This document shows positions 12,111 to 64,000 of a stretch of 64,000 bases of DNA, piece by piece (the first letter of the stretch is position 1; each line of letters starts with the position of its first letter). The stretch lies in contig JBKAGY010000001.1 of assembly GCA_046290585.1 (NCBI GenBank), forward strand, positions 2,212,686 to 2,276,685, given 5' to 3'. Under the pieces are notes generated by a model. That model did not search any database and was not told the origin of the DNA. It saw only the letters and a program-made list of their open reading frames with translations. This stretch comes from Henriciella sp. GTDB lineage: Bacteria; Pseudomonadota; Alphaproteobacteria; Caulobacterales; Hyphomonadaceae. The translations under genes and the position numbers were made by a program.

Positions 12111-13322
12111 ATGCGTCTGAGGCATTCTCGATTCGTGCGCCACCTTCTGGCTTGCACCGCGGTTTTTGCGGCAGCGGCTTTGCCTGTTCAAGGCCAGGAT
12201 GATGTGTCACGCGCCGACTTGGAAGCTTTAGAAGCCGAGCGCGAAGAAACCTTGCGACAGCTGGCGATATTGGAGTCTGCTGGTGGCGTCGTGGCGGGTG
12301 ATCTCGAAAAGCTCGAACGCGATTTGATTTCAGCAGCGATGGAAAGCCAACGTCGGGAAGAACAAGCGATATCGACAGAACTGAAACTGGTCTCGCTCCG
12401 GTCGCGATTGTCCATGGCGCGGACGGATTTGATTGAGGGAGAAGCGGCTCTCGAAGATTTGATGGCCTCGTTAGCGATCTCGGGCCGCCACCGCCCGCCA
12501 GCGCTTTTGACCCAGCCGAAGAATGCCAATCAAGCCATCCGGGCGGCGATCCTAATGGGCGAGGTTGCCCCAGAAGTACGCAGCAAGACCAAGGTTCTCA
12601 CCGAAGAGATTAGCGAGCTCAGAAGCATTGAGCGCCAAGTGTTGCGCGAACAAAAGACTCTGGCCGCCGCCGATGCCGCTTTGGCGCTGAAAAAAGAAGA
12701 GATTATTCAGCTCACAACAGCCAAGCGTGCGGCCTTTGAGGACGTCAATTCAGATGCCCAGATTTTGCGCCAACACGCTGAATCTCTTGGTGAAAAAGCC
12801 GGAACGCTCCGGGACTTGATCCTCGCCCTTGAATCCACCGCTCCGGCGGCGCCGCGCCTGAAACCGCGGCTCGCTTTTGCCGAGCAAACACGACCTCGAC
12901 CCACCCAACGAGCCAACCTGCCGCGCGCGACCGTTTCTCAACCGCTTGGCGTGTTGGCCGTTCCGGCGACCGGCCGCGTGGTCCGCGCCTGGGGCGATAA
13001 AATGCCAGGTGGCGCCAAATCTGAAAGTGTCGCCTTTGCGACCCGTAGCGGCGCTCAAGTTTCTGCCCCAATTAGCGGTACTGTAGAGTTTGCAGGCCCA
13101 TTCAGGAGCTATGGACAATTACTGATCCTCTCGACAAGCGACGGATACCATGTTCTTTTATGGGGAATGTCGTCGAGCTATGTCGCTGTTGGTCAATCGG
13201 TACAACAGGGCGAGCCGGTGGCCCGCATGGCTGAGCGCGCCGCGGGTGAGCCAGAACTATATTTAGAGGTCCGCAAAGGCGGTGAGCCCATGGACCCGGC
13301 AAATTGGATGAAACGCGGCTAA
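12111..13322 (+). CDS. envC: Murein hydrolase activator EnvC (coiled coil + degenerate M23)
   Basis: Signal peptide, long coiled coil, LytM-like C-terminus (FRSYGQLLIL...LYLEVRKGGEPMDP); precedes ctpA. Confidence 0.88.
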   Translation: MRLRHSRFVRHLLACTAVFAAAALPVQGQDDVSRADLEALEAEREETLRQLAILESAGGVVAGDLEKLERDLISAAMESQRREEQAISTELKLVSLRSRLSMARTDLIEGEAALEDLMASLAISGRHRPPALLTQPKNANQAIRAAILMGEVAPEVRSKTKVLTEEISELRSIERQVLREQKTLAAADAALALKKEEIIQLTTAKRAAFEDVNSDAQILRQHAESLGEKAGTLRDLILALESTAPAAPRLKPRLAFAEQTRPRPTQRANLPRATVSQPLGVLAVPATGRVVRAWGDKMPGGAKSESVAFATRSGAQVSAPISGTVEFAGPFRSYGQLLILSTSDGYHVLLWGMSSSYVAVGQSVQQGEPVARMAERAAGEPELYLEVRKGGEPMDPANWMKRG

Positions 13323-13344
13323 GGCCGGAACAGGAGAAACGTCT

Positions 13345-14670
13345 ATGAGAGCTATGCTGACAGGAGCCGCGCTGGGGGTCGTACTTGGAGCGACAGCAGT
13401 TGGGGTTTCAGCCGTCGCATGGCCAGACGCAGAGAATTCGTCGCCGCGTTATGAAGCCGCGTTCGAACAGCTCTCTTTGTTCACCGAAGTGATGGCGCGC
13501 GCCAAAGCCGATTATGTCGAAGAAATTGATGAGGTCGCCGCGCTCGAGGCTGCGATTGACGGCATGCTTGGCTCCCTCGATCCGCATTCTGGCTATATGT
13601 CGCCAGACGAGTTTGAAGCGCTTCAAGTGACCACATCCGGTGAATATGGCGGGCTTGGCATTGAAGTGACCATGGAAGACGGGTTCGTCAAAGTCGTCAC
13701 GCCAATGGATGATACGCCCGCCAGTCGCGCTGGTTTGGAGCCAGGCGACCTGCTCACCCACCTAAACGCAAAAGCGATTGTTGGCTTGAGCCTTGATGAT
13801 GCGGTTCGCGATATGCGCGGCGCGCCGGGCACAGATTTGACGGTCACCGTTTATCGCGACGGGCAAGACCCGTTCGATGTCACGCTAACCCGCGAAGTGA
13901 TCGAACCGAAATATGTTGAGTTCGAAGATAAGGGCGACGGTATCGCCTATATCCGCATCGCGACCTTCAACAATAAAAAGACCACAACCAAGCTGATCGA
14001 AGCGTTTGATCAAATCCGGGATGAGATTGGACGCCGTCCAAACGGGATCATTCTAGATTTACGCAATAATGGTGGCGGCCTGCTCGATGAAGCGGTCTCA
14101 GTCAGCGATCAGTTCCTGTCTGGTGGCGAAGTTGTTTCAACCATTGGCCGACGCCCCGGCGATGTGATGCGGTCAAACGCCCAGCGCGGCGAAGTGTTTA
14201 AGAACGTGCCGCTGGTTGTGTTGATCAATAATGGTTCCGCATCGGCGTCCGAAATTGTCGCTGGCGCCTTGCAAGACCGTGATCGGGCGACGGTGCTCGG
14301 CATGACCAGTTTCGGCAAAGGCTCGGTTCAGACCGTCATGCCACTGGGCGCTGAGCGTGGCGCGATCCGCCTCACCACGGCGCGTTACTACACCCCATCT
14401 GGGCGGTCTATTCAGGCCACGGGCATCGTGCCTGACATTGAAGTTGCCAACCGCCGCGTGAGTGAAGAAGATCTGGCGCGGATCAGACGCTATTCAGAAG
14501 CCGATCTGCCAAACGCGCTCGATAATGAAGACGGCACCGCTCGCGATCTGCCGCATATCCCGGATGATATGCCGCCTGTCGATTATGAGGGCGACTATCA
14601 GCTTGAAAAAGCGATCGAATTTCTAAATTCAGGCGGCATCGTCGCGAGCACAGAAAGCCGCTCCGGCTAA
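13345..14670 (+). CDS. ctpA: S41 carboxyl-terminal processing protease
   Basis: LDPHSGY, PDZ domain, DLRNNGGG, SASASEIVAG, SFGKGSVQ. Confidence 0.95.
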   Translation: MRAMLTGAALGVVLGATAVGVSAVAWPDAENSSPRYEAAFEQLSLFTEVMARAKADYVEEIDEVAALEAAIDGMLGSLDPHSGYMSPDEFEALQVTTSGEYGGLGIEVTMEDGFVKVVTPMDDTPASRAGLEPGDLLTHLNAKAIVGLSLDDAVRDMRGAPGTDLTVTVYRDGQDPFDVTLTREVIEPKYVEFEDKGDGIAYIRIATFNNKKTTTKLIEAFDQIRDEIGRRPNGIILDLRNNGGGLLDEAVSVSDQFLSGGEVVSTIGRRPGDVMRSNAQRGEVFKNVPLVVLINNGSASASEIVAGALQDRDRATVLGMTSFGKGSVQTVMPLGAERGAIRLTTARYYTPSGRSIQATGIVPDIEVANRRVSEEDLARIRRYSEADLPNALDNEDGTARDLPHIPDDMPPVDYEGDYQLEKAIEFLNSGGIVASTESRSG

Positions 14671-14840
14671 GTAGCGGCACGACGCGTTTCTATTTCAGAT
14701 AGTCAGTTGCTGAATTTTAATCGATTCAGGGTCGTGAAGCTGTGCAAATCACTCCAAAGGTTAATTCAAGTTTGCCTCTTCTTAACCATTAGAGCGGCAA
14801 ACTGAATGCTGGTCGAATTAAAGTGTTCTCAGGAGCCTCA

Positions 14841-16079
14841 ATGTCTGCTCGCTCTGCGCGTGATCCATCCCCTTTTCGAAGCGGCGTTGTGCATAGCGCG
14901 CTTGGGGCTTTCACACTGACCTTCGTGCTTGGATCTGCGGCGTCTGCTATGCATTTGCTCGGCAGCCCTGACGCTGGCAGCCCATCTGTACGCATGGCTC
15001 TGTTTAATGAGACACCAAATGACGCGCCGCAGCTAAACCCGCGCTTGCCCGGTTATCAAGGGCCCGCATATGAAGGAACGCTCGGCCTTGCAGCGGCAAC
15101 ACCCGCGGAACAGACCCCACAAGGGGACGAACCTGATCTTGGGGTGGAATATGGTGAAGCCCGTCCGGTTAAAGCCGTCGCACGGACTGACACCAAGCCG
15201 TCTGGCGTGCGGATCAATGGTCGCACAGTTCTGCCTGGACAGACCTATAGTCAGGTCTCGCAAATCCAAATGGCGGACTCTGAGGCCGCGCCAGCGGCGC
15301 CCGTCCTTTCAGAAGACGCGCCGCTGATGCGATATGCGCGGGACTTCACCAATACTGATGGCAAACCCACCGTTTCGATCATTGTTGGCGGACTCGGCAC
15401 CAATCGCACCAGGACCCGAGCAGCGATCAACGAGTTGCCGCCCGAAGTGACACTGTCTTTTGCGCCAACCGCTGACAATTTGCGAGGCTACGTCCGTGAC
15501 GCTCGCCGCGCCGGACATGAAGTCCTGATCGAGCTTCCCATGGAGCCCTATGACTATGGGCGCCAACGTCCGCATCCGCAGGTATTGGAAGCCGACCTGT
15601 CTCCTGACGAAAACCGGCAACGCTTAGCTGCCTTGCTGGCACGCACCCCCGGCTATGTCGGTGTGATGAACTATATGGGCGATAAATACGCCACCAGTAG
15701 CGAGGCGGTTGACCCGGTCGTAGCGGCTTTGAGCGATAAAGGCTTGGCGTTGTTTGACGATGGACGTCTGGGCCGGTCCGAGTTTGGGGTGAGCGCGCGC
15801 AAGTCTGGTCTCGCCTTCGGAAAAGCCACCACTTGGATTGATGCGCGTCCAGGCGCCGATGAGATCTCGCAGCAATTGCTGCTGCTTGAAACCACCGCAC
15901 TGGAACGCGGCGCTGCGCTCGGCACGGGAATGCCCTTCCCGGTGACGTTTGATATTCTCAAAGAATGGCTGCCCACCCTTGAAGCAAAAGGCATCGCTTT
16001 GGCCCCGGCCTCGCACTATGCCAAACAGTCGCTGGGTGCTGGCCAGGTTCAACAGGCTCAGCTAGACCCGCAAGGGTGA
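14841..16079 (+). CDS. Divergent polysaccharide deacetylase (YibQ-like); alternative GTG start at 14823
   Basis: LPPEVTLSFAP, GHEVLIELPMEP, GVMNYMG; conserved position between ctpA and rppH. Confidence 0.88.
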   Translation: MSARSARDPSPFRSGVVHSALGAFTLTFVLGSAASAMHLLGSPDAGSPSVRMALFNETPNDAPQLNPRLPGYQGPAYEGTLGLAAATPAEQTPQGDEPDLGVEYGEARPVKAVARTDTKPSGVRINGRTVLPGQTYSQVSQIQMADSEAAPAAPVLSEDAPLMRYARDFTNTDGKPTVSIIVGGLGTNRTRTRAAINELPPEVTLSFAPTADNLRGYVRDARRAGHEVLIELPMEPYDYGRQRPHPQVLEADLSPDENRQRLAALLARTPGYVGVMNYMGDKYATSSEAVDPVVAALSDKGLALFDDGRLGRSEFGVSARKSGLAFGKATTWIDARPGADEISQQLLLLETTALERGAALGTGMPFPVTFDILKEWLPTLEAKGIALAPASHYAKQSLGAGQVQQAQLDPQG

Positions 16080-16567
16080 GTGAGAAGAAACGGGATCCTG
16101 CGCTTTACCGCGCCAATGTTGGGCTGGCTTTGTTTTCGAAAGCTGGACACGTTTTTGTTGGCCGGCGCGTCAATGGACGCGGCGCGTTTCAATGGCAAAT
16201 GCCGCAGGGCGGGGTCGATAAGGGTGAAGAAGCCGTCGAAGCCGCTTTACGCGAAATGGACGAGGAAATCGGCGTCGCTGCCAAACTGGTCGATATTCTC
16301 GAAGAAACCGAAGACTGGCTGTATTACGATTTTCCGCCAGATCTGTTGCGCCGCATGGGCGGGCCGTATCTCGGGCAGCGTCAGAAATGGTATGCGTTGC
16401 GGTTTAAAGGCTCTGACAGCGACGTTCGCCTCGACAAGCACACGCCTGAATTTGACGCCTGGCGCTGGGCCAAACTCGAAGAGCTTCCCGGCCTGATCGT
16501 TCCGTTTAAACGGCCGGTCTATGAAGAGGTCGCCAAACGGTTCGCGCGATGGGGTGAACCGACCTAG
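16076..16567 (+). CDS. rppH: RNA pyrophosphohydrolase
   Basis: YRANVG, WQMPQGGVD Nudix box REMDEEIG, GQRQKWY. Confidence 0.95.
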   Translation: MSEKKRDPALYRANVGLALFSKAGHVFVGRRVNGRGAFQWQMPQGGVDKGEEAVEAALREMDEEIGVAAKLVDILEETEDWLYYDFPPDLLRRMGGPYLGQRQKWYALRFKGSDSDVRLDKHTPEFDAWRWAKLEELPGLIVPFKRPVYEEVAKRFARWGEPT

Positions 16568-16637
16568 ACCTTTCTTTCCTTTTCCTCAAAACTACGCCTA
16601 TGCTGCAAATGTATGCGGCGCTGGGAGGAAGTTGGCT

Positions 16638-17408
16638 GTGGCGAAAACTCTATTGATGATCCACGGCGTTGGCTGCGGCGGCGAAGTTTGGGAGCGCATG
16701 AAGCGCGATTTCGCCATGGCCGGTTGGACCTGTGAAACGCCAACCTTGTTTCCCGATCTCCGGACCAAAGAGGACCCGCCCGCCGGGCTCGCAGATTTAA
16801 CTCTGAGCGACTATGTGAGCGCCGCCGCTACGATGGCGGACGAGATCAAAGCCAAGACGGGTGAAGCACCTGTTATCATTGGACATTCCATGGGCGGGCT
16901 GATTGCGCAAAAGCTGACCGAAACAGGCGCGGTTCGTGCCGGGATCTTTCTCACACCGGCGCAACCGAAAGGCTGCACGGTCACCGATCTTAGAGTGCTC
17001 AGGACCTTTTGGAGCATTCTTAAAGTTGGTCAAAAAAATGTCCCGGGCGGTGTGTTCAAAGTCGGACCCAAAGGCTTTCGTTGGGGTGTGCTCAACGCGG
17101 TGCCACAAGACCGACATGACGCAATTTATGCCGAAGCACTGTTCGACAGTGGCCGGGTCTATCATGATCTTGCCAATCCCGGCGTCATTGATGAAGCGCA
17201 GATCAATGTCCCGACGCTAACGATTGGCGCTAAGAAAGACCGCGCTACCGTGATCAAAGCGGTGCGCAAGACCGGCGCGAAATACGCGAAGGCGGCGCAT
17301 CCGGGTGACTATATGGAATATGGCAATCACGCGCATTGGATTGTCGATGAGCCAGGCACCGAACAGGTTAGCGCTGATATCTTAGAATGGCTCGATCGCA
17401 GCCTTTAA
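16638..17408 (+). CDS. Alpha/beta hydrolase
   Basis: IHGVG, GHSMGG nucleophile elbow, C-terminal His; SD GGGAGG before GTG 16638. Confidence 0.88.
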   Translation: MAKTLLMIHGVGCGGEVWERMKRDFAMAGWTCETPTLFPDLRTKEDPPAGLADLTLSDYVSAAATMADEIKAKTGEAPVIIGHSMGGLIAQKLTETGAVRAGIFLTPAQPKGCTVTDLRVLRTFWSILKVGQKNVPGGVFKVGPKGFRWGVLNAVPQDRHDAIYAEALFDSGRVYHDLANPGVIDEAQINVPTLTIGAKKDRATVIKAVRKTGAKYAKAAHPGDYMEYGNHAHWIVDEPGTEQVSADILEWLDRSL

Positions 17409-33704: not shown

Positions 33705-35567
33705 ATGGCAGGCACTAATAACGCGACGATCGCAAAACAGGCTAAATCTAAGGACGTGCAATCCGGCGCGCCAGAATTGCGAGTCGTACCGAGCGTTAAG
33801 ATCGACCGGTCTCGCGACGCGCTGCTCACCGAGTTCGGAAAAGTTACCCTTGAGGACCGCTATTTGCTGCCTGGAGAATCTTATCAGGACATGTTTGCAC
33901 GTGTGTCTGAGGCCTTCGCGGACGACGCTGATCATGCCCAACGTCTCTATGATTATATGTCGAAACTTTGGTTCATGCCGGCGACGCCTGTCCTGTCAAA
34001 TGGCGGCGCAGACCGCGGCCTGCCCATCTCTTGCTTCCTGAACCAAGTCGGCGACAGCTTGGACGATATTGTCGGCACTTGGACTGAGAATGTTTGGCTC
34101 GCGTCTAATGGCGGCGGCATCGGCACCTATTGGGGCAATGTTCGCTCGATCGGTGAGAAAGTCGGCAATAGCGGCCAAACCAGCGGCATCATTCCCTTCA
34201 TTCGCGTGATGGACTCTTTGACCCTGGCGATTAGCCAAGGCTCACTGCGCCGCGGTTCCGCGGCGTGCTATTTGGACGTCCACCACCCGGAAATCGAAGA
34301 GTTCCTGGAAGTCCGTAAGCCCTCTGGCGACTTCAACCGGAAATCTCTGAACCTGCACCACGGCATCAATATCACCGATGCGTTCATGGAAGCGGTGAAG
34401 AATGATGAAGAGTTTGAGCTCTTGTCTCCGAAATCAGGTGAGCCGCTGCGCAAAGTGAATGCGCGTAAGATTTGGCAGAAAATTCTCGAGCTGCGTATTC
34501 AAACCGGCGAGCCATACTTGCTGTTCACTGACACCGTGAACAATGCGATGCCGGCCCACCAGCGCCAGCTTGGCCTGAAAGTGACGCAATCTAATCTCTG
34601 CTCCGAGATTACGCTGCCAACTGGCGTCGATCATCATGGTGAAGATCGTACAGCGGTTTGCTGCCTGTCTTCGATTAATGCAGAGAAATTCTTTGAGTGG
34701 AGCAAAGACGAGCTCTTCCTCGAAGACGTTTATCGCTTCCTGGATAATGTGCTTCAAGACTTTATCGATCGCGCGCCACCAGAAATGGCCCGCGCGGTAT
34801 ATTCTGCAAAGCGCGAACGTTCTGTCGGGCTCGGCCTAATGGGCTTCCACTCTTTCCTCCAATCGCTCAATCTCCCGATGGAGAGCGCGATGGCGAAAGT
34901 TTGGAATGAGAAACTGTTCAAACATATTCGCCAAGGCGCTGATGCGGCGTCGGTCAAGCTCGCCAAAGAGCGCGGGCCTTGTGAAGATGCTGCCGAAGCT
35001 GGCATGATGGCGCGTTTCAGCCACAAAATGGCGGTCGCGCCGACGGCCTCAATCTCGATCATTTGTGGCGGCACCAGCGCCGGCATCGAGCCAATCCCGG
35101 CCAATGTTTACACGCATAAGACGCTGTCCGGGTCGTTCACGGTCAAGAATAAGTATCTTGAGCAAATGCTAGAGGAAAAAGGTCAGAACACAGATGAGGT
35201 GTGGACCTCTATTCTCGAACATGAAGGATCGGTTCAGCACTTGGATTGCTTGGACGAGCACGAGAAATCGACATTTAAGACCGCGTTTGAAATTGATCAG
35301 CGCTGGATCATTGAACATGCGGCCGATCGCACGCCTTATATTTGTCAGGCGCAGTCGCTGAACGTATTCCTTCCGGCCGACATCAATAAGTGGGACCTGC
35401 ACATGCTGCACTGGACAGCTTGGGAGCGTGGTGTGAAGTCGCTTTATTATTGTCGCTCTAAGTCCGTGCAGCGCGCGAGTTTCGCCGGGGCGGACGAAAA
35501 AGAAGCCAGTATGAGCGGGATGGATGTTCCGAATACCGACTATGACGAGTGCCTCGCCTGTCAGTAA
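33705..35567 (+). CDS. nrdA: Class I ribonucleotide reductase alpha subunit (620 aa, no evident ATP cone)
   Basis: MPATPVLSNGG, PISCFL, QSNLCSEI, AVAPTASIS, C-terminal ECLACQ. Confidence 0.97.
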   Translation: MAGTNNATIAKQAKSKDVQSGAPELRVVPSVKIDRSRDALLTEFGKVTLEDRYLLPGESYQDMFARVSEAFADDADHAQRLYDYMSKLWFMPATPVLSNGGADRGLPISCFLNQVGDSLDDIVGTWTENVWLASNGGGIGTYWGNVRSIGEKVGNSGQTSGIIPFIRVMDSLTLAISQGSLRRGSAACYLDVHHPEIEEFLEVRKPSGDFNRKSLNLHHGINITDAFMEAVKNDEEFELLSPKSGEPLRKVNARKIWQKILELRIQTGEPYLLFTDTVNNAMPAHQRQLGLKVTQSNLCSEITLPTGVDHHGEDRTAVCCLSSINAEKFFEWSKDELFLEDVYRFLDNVLQDFIDRAPPEMARAVYSAKRERSVGLGLMGFHSFLQSLNLPMESAMAKVWNEKLFKHIRQGADAASVKLAKERGPCEDAAEAGMMARFSHKMAVAPTASISIICGGTSAGIEPIPANVYTHKTLSGSFTVKNKYLEQMLEEKGQNTDEVWTSILEHEGSVQHLDCLDEHEKSTFKTAFEIDQRWIIEHAADRTPYICQAQSLNVFLPADINKWDLHMLHWTAWERGVKSLYYCRSKSVQRASFAGADEKEASMSGMDVPNTDYDECLACQ

Positions 35568-35587
35568 ACGAGCTCAATTAATCAATC

Positions 35588-35616
35588 AAAACCCCGTCAA
35601 TTTGGCGGGGTTTTTT
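35588..35616 (+). terminator. Intrinsic terminator after nrdA
   Basis: AAAACCCCGTCA-ATT-TGGCGGGGTTTTTT. Confidence 0.85.
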
Positions 35617-35920
35617 CGTTTTAGGCGCCTACTTGAGACGAAAACAGCTCTGTTTTCGCTCTCCAATAATGTGTTCTTCGGGCGACTTTAGCCCAAAAAC
35701 GCGCAAATTTTCGGCAAAAATGAAGATTAAACTGGCCTGAGTTAACATTGTTTCACGGGTCAAGTTGGACCCAGATGGCTAATAAATACGGGCATGATCA
35801 CGTTTCTGTGATCCGCAAAAGCTTAATAGAGAGGCGCGCAATCGGATTTTGGGACGTCAAACGTTCATGTTAAGGTAAGGATGATCAGTCAGCTTCTTAG
35901 GGGACCACGGAGCTGACACG

Positions 35921-36721
35921 ATGAGAGGCTTGAGAAGAATGATTATTGCAGGCACATCTTTGATGGCCGCGATGGCATGTCAGACCTGTATTCACGCGCA
36001 AGTGAATTCGGGACCTCAAATCGATGATGAAACTATTCTGGCCGCCAGTCGCGCCCTCGGACAACGCTCTCAGACTCGCGTCAATCTCGTCTATTCGGGA
36101 ACCTTCGCAAAAACCGAAACGACGCGGCATTTCGGCTTTCAACTGCCAAAAGACACTGATCTCGGATTTAAGTTTGATAGTAGCAAACCTTTGAACTCGC
36201 GGCGGCTCTACTCTGGGGCTATTATGACGGACGTGGCGGCTGATCGGGCAGAGGCTAATCTCTCGCCTGTGCCGCGCGAACAGAGACGTTTGACCGCGGA
36301 AATCGCGCTGTCTGCGTCCTCTGAACAAACGGGCCTGGGCTTTGACGTTGGCATCGCGCCACGTGTCGAAATCACGCGTGATGGACAGTTTGCGTCTCGC
36401 CGGTTCGGGGGTGAGGTGCGCATCGGTCAGAACTTCGACAAGCGCGGCGAGCCAACCAATTCAAGCTGGTATCTGTTCGCAGGCGCCGATGGCGAAGCGT
36501 TGGTCTGGGAGCCGGATGAGCAGGGGCTTGTGGCTGTTGGAGCTATGGCGCTTCGGGACAAGGTGACCGTCGGCGATGTTCAAGCCGGCGTGACGATTGA
36601 GCGAGGCTTGGGCCAGATTTCTTTCAGCTATATTCGGCGTGAAGTCGAATATCGGGAGCGAAATCTCGGCGCCAATGAAAATCAGGACTTCGCGGGAGTG
36701 AGCTTTACCATTAAGCGCTGA
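35921..36721 (+). CDS. Exported/outer-membrane protein with LpxR-like C-terminal beta strands
   Basis: Signal peptide; WYLFAGADG, VGDVQAGV, ISFSYIRRE, final amphipathic strand FAGVSFTIKR. Confidence 0.7.
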   Translation: MRGLRRMIIAGTSLMAAMACQTCIHAQVNSGPQIDDETILAASRALGQRSQTRVNLVYSGTFAKTETTRHFGFQLPKDTDLGFKFDSSKPLNSRRLYSGAIMTDVAADRAEANLSPVPREQRRLTAEIALSASSEQTGLGFDVGIAPRVEITRDGQFASRRFGGEVRIGQNFDKRGEPTNSSWYLFAGADGEALVWEPDEQGLVAVGAMALRDKVTVGDVQAGVTIERGLGQISFSYIRREVEYRERNLGANENQDFAGVSFTIKR

Positions 36722-36725
36722 GCGC

Positions 36726-37760
36726 ATGGTTGCTCAAAGATGTATAGGAGCCGCCAGTCTGGCGGCTTTTTTTATGACCGCCGCTGGCGCGCAAGAGACA
36801 GTTAATCCGGCTTTAGAGCCGCCGCAGCCGGTTGGCGTTTGGTCTCTGACCTCTGAAAACGATCTGTTCGGCGGTACCGATCGAAACTATTCCAATGGGC
36901 TTCGCATAGAGCGCGTGCGACCGGCCAATAAAGTAACCCCGGGTTTGAATTGGGTCGCCAATCGCATTCCCTTCTTAGATCTCGACCGAACCGAATTGCG
37001 GCAAGGCTTCGCGCTCTCACACACGATTTTTACGCCCGAAGATATTGAAGCGCCGGTGCCAGATCCGGAAGACCGGCCTTATGCGGCGTGGCTCTATGCG
37101 TCTGGAACGGTGGTCGGCACGACACGACTGGGGCCGGGCGAGATGGTACAGGATGTCTTGCAGGTCAATCTCGGCGTGGTCGGCCCCTCTGCTGGCGGGC
37201 AATTTGTGCAAGAGAATTGGCATGATTTGATCCAGGCGGTCGAACCGCGAGGCTGGGACTCGCAACTCAAAGACGAGTTTGGGATCGAGATTACGGCCCA
37301 GCGGATGCGGCAGTTTGAGGGGCCAGATCTGCCTTTAGGACTAGAAACAGATTACGCTCTGCATGGCGGGGCCACGCTGGGCAATGTTCGCACCTATGCC
37401 TCGATTGGCGGAATGGCTCGGGTGGGTTGGGATCTGTCCTCTGATTTTGGACCTCCGCGCATTCGGCCCGCGCTTGCCGGGGCCGGTGTGTTTCGTCCGG
37501 GCCGACCCTTCGGCGGATATGTCTTTGCGGGCGTTGAAGGTCGCGCCATTGCCCGCGATATGTTCCTAGATGGCAATCTCTTCCGCGACAGTGCGCGGGT
37601 CGAAGACCGAAGAGACTATGGCGCCGATCTGCAATTTGGTGTCGCGCTACATCAAGGCGATGTGCAGCTCGCCTTCACCTATGTTCACCGAACCGAAGAG
37701 TTCGTCGCGCAAAGCGGACCTCAACGTTTCGGGGCTGTGTCGGTATCGATTGCGCGTTGA
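36726..37760 (+). CDS. Lipid A deacylase LpxR family (DUF2219) outer-membrane protein
   Basis: SENDLFGGTDRNYSNG, HTIFTP, DRPYAAWLY, LGVVGPSAGG, GWDSQL, FLDGN. Confidence 0.9.
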   Translation: MVAQRCIGAASLAAFFMTAAGAQETVNPALEPPQPVGVWSLTSENDLFGGTDRNYSNGLRIERVRPANKVTPGLNWVANRIPFLDLDRTELRQGFALSHTIFTPEDIEAPVPDPEDRPYAAWLYASGTVVGTTRLGPGEMVQDVLQVNLGVVGPSAGGQFVQENWHDLIQAVEPRGWDSQLKDEFGIEITAQRMRQFEGPDLPLGLETDYALHGGATLGNVRTYASIGGMARVGWDLSSDFGPPRIRPALAGAGVFRPGRPFGGYVFAGVEGRAIARDMFLDGNLFRDSARVEDRRDYGADLQFGVALHQGDVQLAFTYVHRTEEFVAQSGPQRFGAVSVSIAR

Positions 37761-37762
37761 AT

Positions 37763-38965
37763 TCAACGGCCCATTTTGAGGTTCTGCTTGAGGGCTGATT
37801 TCCTCCAAAACGGTTCGCCGTTGAAAGCGAAGGTCAGCAGCTTTGACCGGGCGATAAGCCAGGCTGCAACAAAGCTCAGTGCATATGTGAGCAATACCGC
37901 TAGGAGAAACTCGATCGTCGGGTCCCAAGATACGAAAATGAGATAGTATCCGAGCAGGTTGCAAATGGGATAGTGCACCAGATAGACGGTATAAGAGTAT
38001 TTTGAGATGGCTTTTACGGTGGGATTAGGTTTGCCGATTTTATCGGCCAAATATCCGAATAAGAACAGCGCGATACCCGTTCCCAAACCACTTGATATGA
38101 GTTTTCGAACGATCCCCCAAACGGAATTATCAATACCCGCGCCGAGGACAAACACGGTAAACATTGTCGCCAAGACCCATACGCGCAGCGGGGTCGCGCG
38201 AAACAGGGTTGATCTTAGCTCTTCGCTGGCACCGAGCAGCAAGCCCAACATGAAAATTGGGAAGTAGGAAAATAGTGTATCTGCGTTGAGGAGAGCGATA
38301 ATGGTGGGTTCAAATCCTAAGAATGATTTGAATAGATAGAAGGCTGCTTTGACGCCAAAGCTCCACAAGCTGATGGTGACCACAACCGTCCACCAGGTCG
38401 ACACTTTTCTATCTAAGTCGACCAGCATTTTCGCAGTGTTGTTCAGCCACGGCATCAAAACGCCCTTGGCAAAACCCCACCACGCGATCAGCGTAAAAAT
38501 TCCGAGTGTTGATAAGAACCAAAGGTGTCCGATCCAACGGCGATCAACAATGGAAAAGTCTCTGCTCAGATCCCCCAAAAATGAGGTTGTCTCAGTTGCT
38601 TTTGCCGCCGCAGCCAAGCTGGCCGCGTAAATCGTAATCGGGCTCAGGATCAAAATCCCAAAGAAAAGAGGAACGGCGATCCTAAGAAGCCGTCCGCGCG
38701 CCCAATCGTCATAACTTCTTTTGCGCAGGAGGAAGATTGAAAGGATCGAGGAGATCATGAAGAAACCAGGCATCGAAAAGACTGGAATCGCCGATAGAAT
38801 CGGCGCCAGCCAGCTCGACTCCGGCGATGAGACAATCCAATCTGCCACGGGATTGTAGACATGCGCGATGTGCACCAAGACAATCAGCAGCAGCATGACT
38901 GCTCTTAATAAATCAAAATGATGGAGCCGTTGAGTGGCCGTGTTTGCTGTCGTCAAAGTGTTCAT
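37763..38965 (-). CDS. Acyltransferase-3 family (OpgC/MdoC-like) membrane acyltransferase
   Basis: FDLLRA, FSMPGFFMIS, RLLRIAVPL, GHLWFL, SYTVYLVHYP; about 10 TM. Confidence 0.88.
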   Translation of the reverse strand: MNTLTTANTATQRLHHFDLLRAVMLLLIVLVHIAHVYNPVADWIVSSPESSWLAPILSAIPVFSMPGFFMISSILSIFLLRKRSYDDWARGRLLRIAVPLFFGILILSPITIYAASLAAAAKATETTSFLGDLSRDFSIVDRRWIGHLWFLSTLGIFTLIAWWGFAKGVLMPWLNNTAKMLVDLDRKVSTWWTVVVTISLWSFGVKAAFYLFKSFLGFEPTIIALLNADTLFSYFPIFMLGLLLGASEELRSTLFRATPLRVWVLATMFTVFVLGAGIDNSVWGIVRKLISSGLGTGIALFLFGYLADKIGKPNPTVKAISKYSYTVYLVHYPICNLLGYYLIFVSWDPTIEFLLAVLLTYALSFVAAWLIARSKLLTFAFNGEPFWRKSALKQNLKMGR

Positions 38966-39087
38966 CCCCGTCCTGCAGACGCCGGATCGACTCGCAAACA
39001 CCATGCCATTGCTCATGGAACAGGCCTGATTCGAGGTTAACATTCACTTTCTTGTGGGCAGGCTGTGGAGAAGTGCCGCAGATCATC

Positions 39088-39135
39088 AGGATACATCTTG
39101 CGTGCGGTAACGGATTTAGACACTATATGTAGTGT
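39088..39135 (+). promoter_or_regulatory. Tandem NrdR boxes upstream of nrdB
   Basis: ACACTATATGTAGTGT (15/16) at 39120; weaker AGGATACATCTTGCGT (10/16) at 39088, 32-bp offset. Confidence 0.75.
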
Positions 39136-39159
39136 GATAGACATTTAAGGGGTTTGAGC

Positions 39160-40188
39160 ATGGCCGATGGTATGGCGAAACTTCCGGGACTTTTAACACC
39201 GTCCCATTCTTACAAGCCGTTCCGCTATGCGTGGGCGTATGATTTTTGGAAATTGCAGCAACAGGTGCACTGGCTGCCCGAAGAGGTGCCGCTCGGCGAA
39301 GATTGCAAAGACTGGGTCAACAAGCTCAATGATAAAGAGCGCAATCTGCTGACTCAGATTTTCCGCTTCTTCACCCAGTCAGACGTCGAAGTCGGCGCCA
39401 ATTATATGGAAAACTATATGCCGCTATTTAAGCCGGTAGAGGTCCGTATGATGCTGGCAGCGTTCTCCAATATGGAGACCGTGCACATCGCCGCTTATGC
39501 GCTTTTACTTGAGACGATCGGCATGCCAGATTCTGAGTTCTCGGCCTTCATGGAATATGAGGAAATGGCCGCGAAGCATGATTATCTCGGCCAGTTCGGC
39601 ACCGAGACCGAGGAAGACATCCTCACCTCTATGGCGGTGTTTGGCGGCTTTACAGAAGGCCTGCAATTGTTCGCCTCCTTCGCGATGCTGATGAACTTCC
39701 CACGCTTCAATAAAATGAAGGGGATGGGCCAAATCGTGTCTTGGTCAGTGCGCGATGAGTCGCTGCATTGTGAGGGCATGATGAAAATGTTCCACACATT
39801 CGCCGCAGAAACGGGCGCGCTGAACACACGCGTGAAAAACCGCATCCGCGAAGCCTGCGAAACTGTGGTGCAGCTAGAAGATAAGTTCATCGAACTGGCT
39901 TTCGAAGCCGGCGAAGTTGAAGGCATGACGCCAACCGATATTCAGCAATATATCCGCTACATCGCCGATTGGCGTATGGGCCAGCTAAAGCTCGATCCGA
40001 TTTATGGCGTCGAGAAACACCCGATTCCGTGGCTGACTGAGATCCTCAACGGCGTCGAGCATGCCAACTTCTTCGAAGCCCGCGCGACGGAATATTCAAA
40101 AGGCGCCACGCAAGGCGACTGGCATGGCGATAGCGGCGTTTGGTCAATGTTCGACAAGCGCAAGCCGCAGACAGTGCTGACAGGCTAG
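39160..40188 (+). CDS. nrdB: Class Ia ribonucleotide reductase beta subunit
   Basis: HWLPEEV, FFTQSDVEV, METVHIAAY (radical Tyr), FTEG, RDESLH, NFFE. Confidence 0.97.
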   Translation: MADGMAKLPGLLTPSHSYKPFRYAWAYDFWKLQQQVHWLPEEVPLGEDCKDWVNKLNDKERNLLTQIFRFFTQSDVEVGANYMENYMPLFKPVEVRMMLAAFSNMETVHIAAYALLLETIGMPDSEFSAFMEYEEMAAKHDYLGQFGTETEEDILTSMAVFGGFTEGLQLFASFAMLMNFPRFNKMKGMGQIVSWSVRDESLHCEGMMKMFHTFAAETGALNTRVKNRIREACETVVQLEDKFIELAFEAGEVEGMTPTDIQQYIRYIADWRMGQLKLDPIYGVEKHPIPWLTEILNGVEHANFFEARATEYSKGATQGDWHGDSGVWSMFDKRKPQTVLTG

Positions 40189-59453: not shown

Positions 59454-59546
59454 CCAAACCTGGCACATTCTGTCGCGCGGCAATTGAGCAACTCATGCCG
59501 AGCATAAGGGCGATTACCTAAGGCTGAGATGCCAAGGAGATCGCAA

Positions 59547-60209
59547 ATGAGCTATATTGAACCCCACAGAAAACCCGAAGGCCTTCGCGACCGGATCGCG
59601 TTTGTTTTTGTGAAATTCTTGCGTTTCTTCGCCGATCTGTTTTTCCGCAAACGCTATGGCCACCGGGCGGTTGTGCTCGAAACCGTTGCTGCGGTGCCGG
59701 GCATGGTGGCCGGATTGCTCCAGCATCTGCGCGCCATTCGCCGGATGCGCGACGATCAAGGCTGGGTCAAAGAACTGCTCGACGAGGCAGAGAATGAACG
59801 CATGCACTTGATGACGTTCATTCAAGTGGCGCAGCCGACTTTGTTCGAGCGCGGTTTGATCATGATCGCGCAGGCCATTTTCTATAATTTCTATTTCTTC
59901 CTCTATCTGTTTGCGCCGAAAACCGCGCACCGCGTCATCGGCTATTTCGAAGAAGAAGCGGTGACCAGCTATACCCATTATCTGCAAGAAATTGATGCGG
60001 GTCGATTAGAGAACGGGCCAGCACCTCAGATCGCCATCGATTATTGGACCCTCCCCGCCACCGCGCGCCTAAGAGATGTTGTCATCGCTGTCCGCGAAGA
60101 CGAAGCCGGGCATCGCGACCGAAACCATTATTTCGCTGACGTTTTGATTGCGGGCGACGAACCTAAAGGCGATGTGGATTTAAACGATTACGCTTGGCGC
60201 AATACATAG
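59547..60209 (+). CDS. aox: Alternative oxidase (ubiquinol oxidase)
   Basis: LETVAAVPGMV, EAENERMHL, FEEEAVTSY, REDEAGH di-iron motifs. Confidence 0.95.
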   Translation: MSYIEPHRKPEGLRDRIAFVFVKFLRFFADLFFRKRYGHRAVVLETVAAVPGMVAGLLQHLRAIRRMRDDQGWVKELLDEAENERMHLMTFIQVAQPTLFERGLIMIAQAIFYNFYFFLYLFAPKTAHRVIGYFEEEAVTSYTHYLQEIDAGRLENGPAPQIAIDYWTLPATARLRDVVIAVREDEAGHRDRNHYFADVLIAGDEPKGDVDLNDYAWRNT

Positions 60210-61135: not shown

Positions 61136-61251
61136 GCTTGTTTGCCTCCCCAGACGTCTCGACCAGACTAAGCCTGTTTGATTGGGCTTTCCAAGTCTCC
61201 AATGTTGCCTAAAACAAATGAAAACACAAAAGACCTGGGAGGTGGTTCGAC

Positions 61252-62823
61252 ATGCTCGACACGAAAACGATGCCGCATGTGGCGGATATTCCGCGCGTTC
61301 AAGCCGAGTTGCGAGGCGGTGAAGTCGCTTTCTGGTGCAATGAGGAAGAAACCACATTTGGCGAGCTAGATAAGCGTGCCAATCAAGTGAGCCATGGGCT
61401 GACGGGCTTAGGGGTCGAGGTCAATCAGCGAGTGGGCTATCTCGCGAAGAATACCGCGCTTTATTACGAAATGCTCTATGGCTGCGCGAAAATCCGGGCG
61501 GTGATGAATGCCGTCAACACGCGTCTGGCCGCGCCGGAGGTTCAATTCATTCTCTCTGACGCCCAGGTCTCAGTGCTATTTGTCGGGCCCGAATGGTTCG
61601 ACATGATCGACCAAATCAAAGATGAGTGTCCGCATCTGCAGCACATAATCACCGTCGATGGCAGCCGCGAGGGGTGGCCTGAATACACAGCCTGGCGAGA
61701 CAGCCAAGACGGCGCGGCGCCAGCGGTCAAAACGCTTGATGATGACGATGTGATCCAGCTCTACACGTCCGGAACGACGGGTTTGCCAAAGGGCGTGATG
61801 CTGACCAATGCGAACTATGAATCTTTCATGGAACAGGCGGGCGCATTGCAATGGGCAGGCTATGAAGCCGGCGAAGTGGTGATGAATGCCATGCCGCTCT
61901 TCCACGTAGCGGGTGTGAATGCGGGTGTGCTCGCGACCGCGCAGGGGGCCAAAACGGTCGTCCTGCCTGAGATTAATCCGGCACAAATTTTGGATTTGAT
62001 CGAAACTCAGAAGATCAATCATGCATTCTGGGTGCCCGCCGTTATTCTGATGTTGTCGCAAATGCCGGATTTCCGTGAGCGCGATTATTCGACGCTGAAA
62101 CAGGTCTTTTATGGCGCCTCGCCGATCACTGAAGACCTGTTGAAAACGGCCGTCGAAGTGATGGGCGCGCAGTTTACGCAGCTCTACGGCCTCACCGAAA
62201 CGGTTGGCGGCGGTACTTATTTGCCGCCCGAAGCGCATAATCCAAGCTGGGGCAAGCTCCGCTCTTGCGGGGTGCCGTATCCGTCGACCATCGTTCGCTG
62301 TGTTGATGCAGATGGCAATTCCGTCCCGATCGGCGAAGTGGGTGAGATTGTGATCCAGTCCGGCTTCGTCATGAAAGGGTATTGGAACCGCCCAGAGGCC
62401 ACCGAAGACTCAATTCGCAATGGTTTCTTCCATACTGGCGATGCGGGTTATTTTGACGAAGATGGGTTCTTGTTCATCCATGACCGCGTCAAAGACATGA
62501 TCGTGTCAGGCGGTGAGAACGTTTATCCAGCCGAGGTCGAGAATGCGATCTTTGGGCATCCGGACGTGGCCGATGTCGCTGTGATCGGCGTACCAGATGA
62601 GAAATGGGGCGAGTCCGTCAAAGCGATTATCGTTCCGAAAGATGGCGCAAATCCAACGCCTGAAAGCATCATTGCTTGGGCAAGAGAGAAGATTGCTGGC
62701 TATAAATGCCCGAAATCGGTCGACTATATTGAAGCCTTGCCGCGCAACCCGTCGGGTAAAATTCTGCGCAAAGATCTGCGTGAGCCTTATTGGGCGGGAC
62801 AAGAACGACGCGTTGGGGGCTAA
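61252..62823 (+). CDS. fadD: Long-chain fatty-acid--CoA ligase family (adenylate-forming)
   Basis: YTSGTTGLPKG, YGLTE, HTGD, RVKDMIVSGGENVYP, NPSGKIL. Confidence 0.92.
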   Translation: MLDTKTMPHVADIPRVQAELRGGEVAFWCNEEETTFGELDKRANQVSHGLTGLGVEVNQRVGYLAKNTALYYEMLYGCAKIRAVMNAVNTRLAAPEVQFILSDAQVSVLFVGPEWFDMIDQIKDECPHLQHIITVDGSREGWPEYTAWRDSQDGAAPAVKTLDDDDVIQLYTSGTTGLPKGVMLTNANYESFMEQAGALQWAGYEAGEVVMNAMPLFHVAGVNAGVLATAQGAKTVVLPEINPAQILDLIETQKINHAFWVPAVILMLSQMPDFRERDYSTLKQVFYGASPITEDLLKTAVEVMGAQFTQLYGLTETVGGGTYLPPEAHNPSWGKLRSCGVPYPSTIVRCVDADGNSVPIGEVGEIVIQSGFVMKGYWNRPEATEDSIRNGFFHTGDAGYFDEDGFLFIHDRVKDMIVSGGENVYPAEVENAIFGHPDVADVAVIGVPDEKWGESVKAIIVPKDGANPTPESIIAWAREKIAGYKCPKSVDYIEALPRNPSGKILRKDLREPYWAGQERRVGG

Positions 62824-62825
62824 TC

Positions 62826-63749
62826 ATGGATGATGCGCACGGCGTTCACGATTATGTCTATGATGAGCGCAATGCCGACATTCAGGTCTCCATAAATGGC
62901 GAGCTGAAACATCGCGATCAGGCCACGGTCTCGGTCTTTGAAAGCGGTTATTTGCTTGGCGACGGCGTTTGGGAAGGGATGCGCGTCCATGGCGGCGGAG
63001 TCGCGTTCTTAGATGAGCATTTGAAGCGGCTTTATGCCGGCGCCAAGACGATTGATATCGATATCGGTCTGAGCCCCGAAGCTCTTACCCAGCAGCTGTT
63101 TGATTGTCTCAAAGCCCAGGGCATGACGGAGGGCGTTCATATCCGCTTGATGGTCACGCGCGGGGTGAAGAAGACGCCTTATCAAGGGCCTCGCTTCACG
63201 ATCAAACCGCCGACCATCGTGATCATTCCGGAATTTAAATCGCCCGTGCCAGAGATCCAAGCCAAAGGCGTGTCGCTCTTTACGGCTCATGTGCGGCGGA
63301 CAGGGCCAGCGGAGCAGGACCAAAAGCTCAATTCGCATTCCAAGCTGAATTGTATCTTGGCCTGTATCCAAGCTGACAAAGCCGGTGCTGACGAAGCGCT
63401 CATGCTTGATCCAGATGGCTTTGTCGCGACCTGCAATTCGACGCATTTCTTCATTGTTCGCGATGGCGAGGTTTGGACCAGTCCGCCGGAATATTGCCTC
63501 GGCGGAATTACCCGCGGAAACATCATTCGAGTTTGCCGCGAGAGCGACATTCCGGTGCGTGAGAAGCGCTTCTCACTGTTTGATGTCTATTCGGCCGATG
63601 AGGCGTTCATCACGGGCACCTTTGCTGGCGCGACACCCGTACGCGAAGTAGATGGCCGGGTGATCGCGCAGCTTAACGGCCCGATGACGCAGAAACTGTC
63701 GGGGCTGTACAAAGCGCTGATCGAAACGAACTTGACGCCGATCACATGA
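62826..63749 (+). CDS. PLP fold-type-IV (BCAT/DAAT-like) protein, non-canonical active site
   Basis: GYLLGDGVWEG, HLKRL, LGGITR, FITGT...PVREVDG retained; canonical Lys and Glu positions appear to be Asn and Thr. Confidence 0.85.
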   Translation: MDDAHGVHDYVYDERNADIQVSINGELKHRDQATVSVFESGYLLGDGVWEGMRVHGGGVAFLDEHLKRLYAGAKTIDIDIGLSPEALTQQLFDCLKAQGMTEGVHIRLMVTRGVKKTPYQGPRFTIKPPTIVIIPEFKSPVPEIQAKGVSLFTAHVRRTGPAEQDQKLNSHSKLNCILACIQADKAGADEALMLDPDGFVATCNSTHFFIVRDGEVWTSPPEYCLGGITRGNIIRVCRESDIPVREKRFSLFDVYSADEAFITGTFAGATPVREVDGRVIAQLNGPMTQKLSGLYKALIETNLTPIT

Positions 63750-64000
63750 CGACCAAGCCGCTTCGCATCGCCATGTGGTCTGGGCCGCGAAACATGTCGA
63801 CGACAATGATGCGCAGCTTCGGCGCGCGGCCCGATACGGTCTGTTTCGATGAACCCTTCTACGCGGCTTATTTGAAACAGACCGAGTTGAACCATCCGAT
63901 GTCAGACGAGATCTTTGCCAGTCAAAGCGTTGACCCTGACGCGGTCATATCAGACCTGATCGCTGTCCCAAGTCTAGATCGTCCGGTGGTCTATCAAAAA
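63746..64000 (+). CDS. Sulfotransferase-like P-loop protein, N-terminal part (runs off window end)
   Basis: Manual translation MTTKPLRIAMWSGPRNMSTTMMRSFGARPDTVCFDEPFYAAYL...HP; ATGA overlap with upstream stop. Confidence 0.8.
   Translation, partial: MTTKPLRIAMWSGPRNMSTTMMRSFGARPDTVCFDEPFYAAYLKQTELNHPMSDEIFASQSVDPDAVISDLIAVPSLDRPVVYQK

Follow-up and report, generated by a model that had tools for sequence, protein, structure and literature searches.

In enzymes of pyridoxal 5'-phosphate (PLP) fold type IV, a Glu column keeps the pyridine N1 of the cofactor protonated. The closest solved relative of the first protein considered here is known from Protein Data Bank (PDB) entries 7z79 ('Crystal structure of aminotransferase-like protein from Variovorax paradoxus') and 9j32 ('mutant N174K' of that protein). 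The nearest solved sequence relatives of the second are the sulfotransferase (ST) domains of CurM and of olefin synthase (OLS). These are 'activating' enzymes, which act on 3-hydroxyacyl chains bound to an acyl carrier protein and install sulfate as a leaving group, with a thioesterase next. The present study concerns a locus at the end (61252-64000) of a 64,000-nt stretch of Henriciella sp. DNA (hereafter the window; contig JBKAGY010000001.1, positions 2,212,686-2,276,685), where three genes of the + strand, encoding an acyl-CoA ligase, a fold-type-IV 'aminotransferase' and a Sulfotransfer_5 protein, stand in a row. The fold-IV protein is a member of a large 'aminotransferase-like' clade without the Schiff-base Lys, typified by 7z79, and the conserved unit is the fold-IV/Sulfotransfer_5 pair, of which the ligase is only a local neighbour. 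With a probability of about 0.6, we consider the pair to be a two-protein sulfotransferase module, which is not a transaminase and of which the ligase forms no part.

The fold-type-IV protein and its Lys-less clade

The product of the middle gene has the two-domain architecture of fold type IV, as indicated by Pfam (Aminotran_4, PF01063, E = 3e-45) and by an AlphaFold2 (AF2) model (predicted local distance difference test score, pLDDT, 94.8), for which Foldseek gave template modelling (TM) scores of 0.82-0.90 to structures of branched-chain amino acid aminotransferases (BCATs) and D-amino acid aminotransferases (DAATs). HMMER alignment with solved archaeal BCATs paired the query segment KLNSHSKLNCILA with NIKSLNYLNNILA, which places Asn169 at the Schiff-base Lys, and GFVATCNSTHFF with GYISEGSGDNIF, which places Thr202 in the Glu column, presumably the one that makes the pyridine-N1 contact. 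The Lys was likewise absent from a MAFFT alignment, where its column is again occupied by Asn169. Four residues further on, Lys173 stands where the aligned BCATs carry a Tyr, which we take to be the contact of PLP O3'. The phosphate cup has been kept (R68, T229-R230 and T263-G-T265, with the motifs HLKRL, LGGITR and TGT), as has R107. A preliminary description of this DNA had assigned the same Asn and Thr codons to the two catalytic positions and had recognized the three phosphate-binding motifs; its coordinates proved exact, and the alignments, which could have brought out a canonical Lys and Glu, returned Asn169 and Thr202 instead.

The protein is predicted to lack standard transaminase function, as the preliminary description had supposed: besides the loss of both Lys and Glu, all 18 of its NCBIfam matches (to BCAT, DAAT and PabC models) fell below the cut-offs of the respective models, including the best one, PRK08320 (237 bits versus a cut-off of 363), and ilvE_I (196 versus 245.55). 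Since the Schiff-base Lys is missing, the database labels 'branched-chain amino acid aminotransferase' and 'aminotransferase class IV' appear to be wrong for catalysis.

The closest structures were 7z79 and 9j32, which were the top PDB matches in the HMMER search (E ~1e-98). Comparison of the AF2 model with known structures confirmed the BCAT-like fold, yet the best superposition was with 7z79 (TM 0.94-0.96, root-mean-square deviation 1.3 Å, E = 1.5e-45) and not with the best true BCAT (TM ~0.89, E = 1e-35). The residue exchanged in 9j32 (N174K) is the one that corresponds, in the Variovorax homologue, to Asn169 of the query. As in the window protein, 7z79 has Asn at the Lys column (LNSHSR versus LNSHSK in the query) and a similar segment at the Glu column (SSCNST versus ATCNST), and the alignment of the two starts inside a common N-terminal extension and takes in its R-N residues. 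They differ at positions 173 (Arg in 7z79, Lys in the query) and 202 (Ser and Thr, respectively). The query is ~55% identical to the 7z79 group, which constitutes a sister subgroup (7z79 is 67% identical to P0123/P0287).

The extent of the clade was assessed by a HMMER scan of 1.84 billion cluster representatives, of which the top 150 were aligned and classed. The classes were (i) the Asn type, with LN(S/A)HS(K/R)LN at the Lys column and (T/S)CNST at the Glu column (68 of the 150), (ii) the His type, with KIHHNNLLNN at the Lys column and AETNAT, in which Glu is kept, at the Glu column (26), and (iii) the canonical Lys type, with both Lys and Glu present (27). Common to the Asn and His types are an N-terminal D-x-R-N extension (D13, R15 and N16; H-x4-D-x-R-N in the window protein), W49, H105 and K115, all of which are absent from the Lys type. 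These shared derived features indicate that the Asn and His types form one Lys-less lineage. The system had initially been described as uncharacterized, which holds in so far as no functional study of Lys-less fold-IV proteins or of 7z79 was found in the literature searched; the family itself is not unknown, as crystal structure 7z79 exists.

In 161 related loci with identities of 56-94%, no change was seen in N169, H171, S172, K173, T202, C203, N204, T206 or the phosphate cup, and S205 deviates in only one. The invariance of the same substitutions in so many loci means that they reflect neither chance nor a sequencing error. In one of the loci (L032, 6001-7027) the fold-IV match extends over 1027 nt instead of 921 and its best segment covers only 280 residues; this gene may carry an insertion or a frameshift in that metagenome-assembled genome (MAG).

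The question of whether a shifted Lys might take over the role of the missing one was judged by column conservation. The Lys at -2 (K167) varies. K173 is invariant within the subgroup coupled to Sulfotransfer_5 (the above 161 loci), whereas the 7z79 subgroup and many representatives of the Asn group have Arg there. The occurrence of either Lys or Arg at position 173 across this group points to a conserved positive charge rather than to a conserved Schiff-base Lys, and a Schiff-base role of K173 specific to the coupled subgroup seems unlikely.

The Sulfotransfer_5 partner, the pair and the neighbouring genes

Two sets of loci were used to analyse the genetic context of the fold-IV gene: a genome set (one genome per species; 80 loci, 78-94% identity; neighbours identified by tblastn) and a metagenome set, obtained in a scan seeded with distant members of the Asn type (80 loci, 56-69% identity to the window protein). 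A Sulfotransfer_5 gene was detected directly downstream of the fold-IV gene in 77 of the 80 genome loci, and downstream on the same strand in 73 of the 80 metagenome loci; in five of the seven metagenome exceptions, fewer than 200 nt remain downstream. Five loci with sufficient room but without Sulfotransfer_5 (L033, L038, L051, L163 and L168) carry a fatty-acid hydroxylase, flavodoxin-like or convergent gene in its place.

The ligase gene, in contrast, was found upstream of the pair in only 36 of the 80 genome loci, all from the Henriciella clade, and no AMP-binding ligase was present in the flanks of any of the 80 metagenome loci. The three-gene acyl-activation pathway that the preliminary description had put forward was thus not supported, for the linkage with fadD is not conserved and the pair, which is, occurs in other contexts. 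As a neighbour of the pair, the ligase is specific to Henriciella and dispensable for the module, although it may feed the latter or share its regulation in this lineage. In other Henriciella species the distance from the ligase to the pair is ~110 bp (L035), and within the genome loci the ligase is nearly always accompanied by a divergent glutathione S-transferase (GST)-like gene; in the Henriciella loci, an alternative oxidase (AOX) gene, the GST-like gene and the ligase travel together. One relative with 59% identity, which comes from a cluster of 1414 sequences, shows the same 4-bp overlap with its partner and has no ligase.

In Hyphomonas (L034, L039) the pair follows genes for an M23 peptidase, an S41 protease, a divergent polysaccharide deacetylase, a NUDIX protein and a small hydrolase. 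The window contains the same five-gene block, with a CtpA-like S41 protease and an alpha/beta hydrolase, but at a distance of 45 kb from the pair. Hyphomonas hence does not share the placement of the ligase next to the pair, which results from a rearrangement either in its own lineage or in that of Henriciella. The pair follows CobS in sphingomonads and lies ~1.6 kb downstream of CTP synthase in one Henriciella MAG (L060), and in Ponticaulis it is preceded by divergent genes, none of which falls into a recurrent cluster. All-against-all clustering of neighbours (80 genome and 38 long metagenome loci) revealed no recurrent third gene beyond clade-level synteny. The candidates rejected on this ground were (i) the M23/S41/deacetylase/NUDIX genes of Hyphomonas, (ii) CobS of sphingomonads, and (iii) genes for dihydrolipoamide dehydrogenase (Lpd, 9 of the 38 long metagenome loci), 2-oxoacid dehydrogenase E2 (5/38) and an amidohydrolase (4/38).

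The Lpd and E2 genes lie just upstream of the pair in a subset of soil-metagenome loci (L146, 57-4247; L127, L164, L170, L122, L152). This neighbourhood probably reflects synteny within a clade, yet it is the sole hint of a metabolic neighbourhood. The amidohydrolase gene overlaps the stop codon of Sulfotransfer_5 in L146.

It is worth mentioning that, in the same genome loci, the fold-IV protein is far more conserved (79-94% identity) than its partner (52-75%), which would be unusual for a supposedly 'dead' enzyme. In Hyphomonas johnsonii (L039), for instance, the respective values are 82% and 58%; the fold-IV protein is also more conserved than the ligase (L002-L081).

Some relatives of the Asn type do without the partner. 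Two of them, the closest to 7z79 (L084, 7288-9403; L082, 7156-8903), lie in amino-acid-related surroundings without Sulfotransfer_5. The start of one overlaps an enolase-superfamily gene (MR_MLE_C); an AsnC regulator comes next, and fragments of an ABC amino-acid transporter and of proline dehydrogenase are close by. The other overlaps the gene of a solute-binding protein. The one readable context of the 7z79 subgroup is of the former kind, with an enolase-superfamily gene and an AsnC regulator. A fungal member of the clade stands alone.

Fusions of the two domains, which the preliminary description had mentioned, were indeed found: proteins with Sulfotransfer_5 at the N terminus and Aminotran_4 at the C terminus occur in both the Asn and the His groups and are encoded on contigs with eukaryotic genes. 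Those examined carry only these two Pfam domains.

The window cuts the partner gene, and Pfam recognized Sulfotransfer_5 (PF19798) with E = 7e-24 in the 84 amino acids (aa) visible. Reading of this gene beyond the window was enabled by Logan contig L001, identical to the window over a 301-nt overlap. The complete gene (L001:10921-11661), which would stop 486 nt past the window, encodes 246 aa, and PF19798 spans residues 7-239 of the product (E = 2.8e-65). Alignment of 48 homologues revealed four invariant features: (i) W11-S12-G13-P14-R15-N16-x-S18-T19, in which the motif SGPRNxSTT resembles a 5'-phosphosulfate loop, (ii) D35-E36-P37, (iii) K85, and (iv) R110-x-P112...S118. The only matches of a PDB profile search were the STs of CurM (3e-8) and of OLS (2e-6); K85 aligns with the Lys of 'DKSPTY' in the CurM ST, and IRHPARVxxS with its 'VRHPYSVIES'. 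The roles of 5'-phosphosulfate loop and 3'-phosphate motif are assumed by us from established knowledge of the family and not from a ligand-bound structure. A proxy (P0311) with 89% identity to the window protein was used for modelling. Its AF2 model (pLDDT 94) gave as top Foldseek matches in the PDB the tyrosylprotein sulfotransferases TPST1/2 with 3'-phosphoadenosine 5'-phosphate (PAP), the STs of OLS and CurM, and other enzymes that use 3'-phosphoadenosine 5'-phosphosulfate (PAPS), with E to 1e-7 and TM 0.5-0.6. According to this model, the partner is predicted to be a PAPS-type sulfotransferase-like protein with the PAPS-sulfotransferase fold, in accordance with the PAPS-loop-like character ascribed earlier to its WSGPRNMST segment. 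No characterized member of PF19798 was found in the literature searched.

In the NCBI records, many Sulfotransfer_5 homologues (P0314, P0318, P0323 and others) bear the name 'HAD family hydrolase', the other label being 'sulfotransferase'. No support was found for the former name: Pfam finds only the sulfotransferase domain in these homologues and NCBIfam finds nothing, so that it looks like a propagated misannotation.

The positions of the genes and residues are collected in Table 1. The GGAGG sequence preceding the ligase gene supports the ATG at 61252 as its start. The ligase stop codon (TAA, 62821-62823) is separated by 2 bp from the ATG of the fold-IV gene (62826), whose stop codon (TGA, 63747-63749) overlaps the ATG of the Sulfotransfer_5 gene (63746) as ATGA; the tight coupling noticed previously is thereby borne out. 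The two genes of the pair are predicted to be translationally coupled via this overlap, and the 2-bp spacing suggests that the ligase is probably co-transcribed with them in this genome. In L001 the Sulfotransfer_5 gene is followed by a convergent gene for a 479-aa alpha/beta-hydrolase, so the co-directional run ends after the Sulfotransfer_5 gene. The 3' ends of these two genes overlap by four bases (L001, 11658-11661), and no terminator-like site was detected between them.

The ligase itself matches both domains of the ANL family (PF00501, E = 4e-80; PF13193, E = 9e-24) and scores above the curated threshold of NCBIfam PRK06187 (NF004837; 555 bits versus a cut-off of 476). Its closest solved relatives, FadD13 of Mycobacterium tuberculosis and feruloyl-CoA synthetase, are not informative on its substrate. 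Upstream of it, the GST-like gene is divergent and adjoins the AOX gene.

Table 1. Positions of the genes, residues and neighbouring features in the window.
Feature	Position	Strand	Basis or remark
Shine-Dalgarno-like GGAGG	61238..61242	+	before ligase start codon; read from sequence
ANL-family acyl-CoA ligase, 523 aa	61252..62823	+	Pfam AMP-binding + AMP-binding_C
Lys-less fold-type-IV 'aminotransferase-like' protein, 307 aa	62826..63749	+	Pfam Aminotran_4, AF2, Foldseek
Asn169 codon, Schiff-base Lys column	63330..63332	+	alignments
His171-Ser172-Lys173; Lys173 in BCAT Tyr column	63336..63344	+	alignment
Thr202-Cys203-Asn204-Ser205-Thr206, in place of canonical Glu-Gly-x-x-x	63429..63443	+	alignments
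Sulfotransfer_5 gene, 5' part (85 codons)	63746..64000	+	Pfam PF19798
GST-like gene, 315 aa	60188..61135	-	divergent, upstream of ligase
AOX gene	59529..60209	+	Pfam, E = 1.5e-84
Five-gene block as in Hyphomonas	12273..17402	+	45 kb from the pair
Ribonucleotide reductase genes, large and small subunits	33705..40188		
Two tandem LpxR-like outer-membrane genes	35921..37760		between the reductase genes

The best-named relatives belong to Henriciella (Hyphomonadaceae). The exact sequence is present in DNA metagenomes only, mostly of algae and biofilms, and no RNA-seq run carries it. No Rfam match was obtained over the whole window, promoter and terminator scans performed no better than on shuffled sequences, and PADLOC gave no match that would indicate a role in anti-phage defence. 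Elsewhere in the window, the genes for the large and small subunits of ribonucleotide reductase are split by the two LpxR-like genes and an opposite-strand Acyl_transf_3 gene.

Proposed function and rival explanations

We propose that the Sulfotransfer_5 protein, with PAPS, would sulfonate a small anionic metabolite, probably an amino-acid-like one, and that the non-transaminating fold-IV partner would bind the acceptor or the sulfated product in its remodelled, more cationic former PLP pocket, with the sulfate or phosphate group seated in the cup that has been kept. The partner would then either present the acceptor or convert the product further. The pocket has lost an acidic and gained a basic residue, which makes a more anionic, non-pyridinium ligand probable, and the amino-acid-related contexts of the sister subgroups suggest that this ligand is amino-acid-like. 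Our preferred version, in which sulfation would activate a leaving group and the resulting sulfate ester would undergo elimination or substitution in the fold-IV partner, is suggested by the 'activating' nature of the CurM and OLS STs. By this analogy, a sulfate-activation step specifically is a tentative proposal, for which we would give rather low odds. It is possible, though doubtful, that the fold-IV protein is an active enzyme whose chemistry is new for the fold, with no Schiff base and perhaps no cofactor, operating via the invariant His171, Lys173 and Cys203; together with the PAPS sulfotransferase it would then carry out a sulfation-activated conversion of a common metabolite, in an unnamed pathway whose conservation would reach from Alphaproteobacteria and bacteria of soil metagenomes as far as algae and plants.

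Three other explanations were weighed against the two-protein module. That the genes form a three-step pathway, in which the ligase makes an acyl-CoA thioester for modification by the fold-IV protein and the sulfotransferase (e.g. sulfation of a hydroxyacyl thioester), would be in line with the close spacing of the genes in this genome (2-bp gap, ATGA overlap), with the collinearity of the three genes in the 36 Henriciella-clade loci and with the action of the CurM and OLS STs, the closest solved relatives of the partner, on 3-hydroxyacyl thioesters. Hydroxy fatty acids are sulfonated by one sulfotransferase of gut bacteria, which belongs to another Pfam family (PMC13449962). However, the pair has no ligase beside it in Hyphomonas, Ponticaulis, sphingomonads and all 80 metagenome loci, the spacing rises to ~110 bp within Henriciella itself, the ligase keeps nearly constant company with the divergent GST-like gene, its adjacency to the pair follows from the rearrangement mentioned above, and the eukaryotic fusions examined comprise the two domains only; an acyl pathway is thus improbable.

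The other two explanations concern the fold-IV protein. It might still be a PLP enzyme, with non-covalent PLP or pyridoxamine 5'-phosphate or with a Schiff base at Lys173, and subject the substrate or product of the sulfotransferase to a non-standard PLP reaction; an O-sulfo amino acid, for instance, might undergo beta/gamma-elimination. The intact phosphate cup and R107 would suit this, as would the invariance of K173 in the 161 coupled loci and its location in the BCAT Tyr column, presumably beside the cofactor; moreover, in other PLP fold types it is not unusual for a Ser or Thr to face the pyridine N1. We nevertheless find it unlikely, as both the 7z79 subgroup and many representatives of the Asn group have Arg at position 173, as the Glu column is lost, and as the depositors chose both the name 'aminotransferase-like' and the N174K mutant, which suggests an absence of normal PLP chemistry in the wild type. 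At the opposite extreme, the protein could be a dead pseudoenzyme that serves the sulfotransferase only as a subunit, in a structural or regulatory role (e.g. a ligand sensor or an oligomerization scaffold), as the loss of both hallmark catalytic residues and the obligate pairing and fusion with a sulfotransferase domain might imply. Yet its active-site residues are not degenerate but form a new invariant set (H171, S172, K173, C203, N204 and T206), it surpasses its partner in conservation within the same loci, and Asn-type relatives occur alone in catabolic contexts. Taken together, these three features fit an active ligand-binding or catalytic site better than a pseudoenzyme, which we regard as quite unlikely.

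A number of points weigh against the two-protein module. Three of the 80 genome loci have no adjacent Sulfotransfer_5 gene, and Asn-type relatives (the subgroup of 7z79 and another with 47% identity) lack it in contexts of amino-acid transport or catabolism, which indicates that a fold-IV protein of this kind can function without a sulfotransferase. The invariance of K173 in the coupled subgroup makes a relocated Schiff-base Lys conceivable, and the 2-bp spacing of the ligase gene, suggestive of co-transcription, does the same for a lineage-specific functional link. The action of the fold-IV partner on a sulfate ester is deduced solely from the residue pattern and from analogy, and the literature searched on PF19798 and on plant 'BCAT-like' proteins yielded no substrate, product or activity of any member.

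This locus is an ordinary member of a known, uncharacterized family, and the link with fatty-acid activation should not be propagated. Thousands of such proteins carry the above transaminase labels in the databases, and the pair, widespread in bacteria, is a self-contained and well-defined target for the discovery of function. If the fold-IV partner is catalytic, it would extend the range of the PLP fold; if it is a binding subunit, it would clearly exemplify how a sulfotransferase can recruit a pseudo-transaminase.

Comparison with known systems

The fold-IV protein shares with canonical transaminases and related enzymes (BCATs 5e25, 5cm0 and 5mqz, DAAT 1daa, and aminodeoxychorismate lyase) the overall fold (TM 0.82-0.90, 28-37% identity), the phosphate-binding residues and the equivalent of Arg107. 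Unlike them, it is devoid of the Schiff-base Lys and of the residues of the Glu and Tyr columns, carries an additional motif at the N terminus as well as the K115 insertion, and remains below all NCBIfam family cut-offs.

The partner has the same PAPS-sulfotransferase fold as the CurM and OLS ST domains (PDB 4gbm, 4gox) and the tyrosylprotein sulfotransferases, and the stretch aligned with CurM and OLS takes in a Lys of the active-site region and the 'VRHP...S' segment, the presumed 3'-phosphate motif. The similarity to these domains amounts, however, to only 13-18% identity with TM ~0.5-0.6. The STs of CurM and OLS form part of polyketide synthases, whereas the partner is paired with a fold-IV protein, and, in contrast to their setting, no carrier protein or thioesterase is conserved near the pair.

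The eukaryotic fusions, finally, combine the same two domains as this locus, and both of their classes lack the Schiff-base Lys. We presume them to be the plant 'branched-chain-amino-acid aminotransferase-like proteins', such as Arabidopsis At5g27410 and At3g05190; in the literature searched, the plant 'BCAT-like' names appeared only in omics lists and no functional study was found. One fusion class (559 aa, probably the plant type) has His at the Lys column and retains Glu, while the other has Asn and Thr, as in the window protein. In the locus described here the fold-IV gene precedes a separate Sulfotransfer_5 gene, whereas Sulfotransfer_5 is N-terminal in the fusions. A bacterial gene of the His type (Lys replaced by His, Glu kept; L089, 2-1366) has Sulfotransfer_5 immediately upstream, i.e. 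in the order of the eukaryotic fusions and opposite to that of the Asn-type bacterial pairs.

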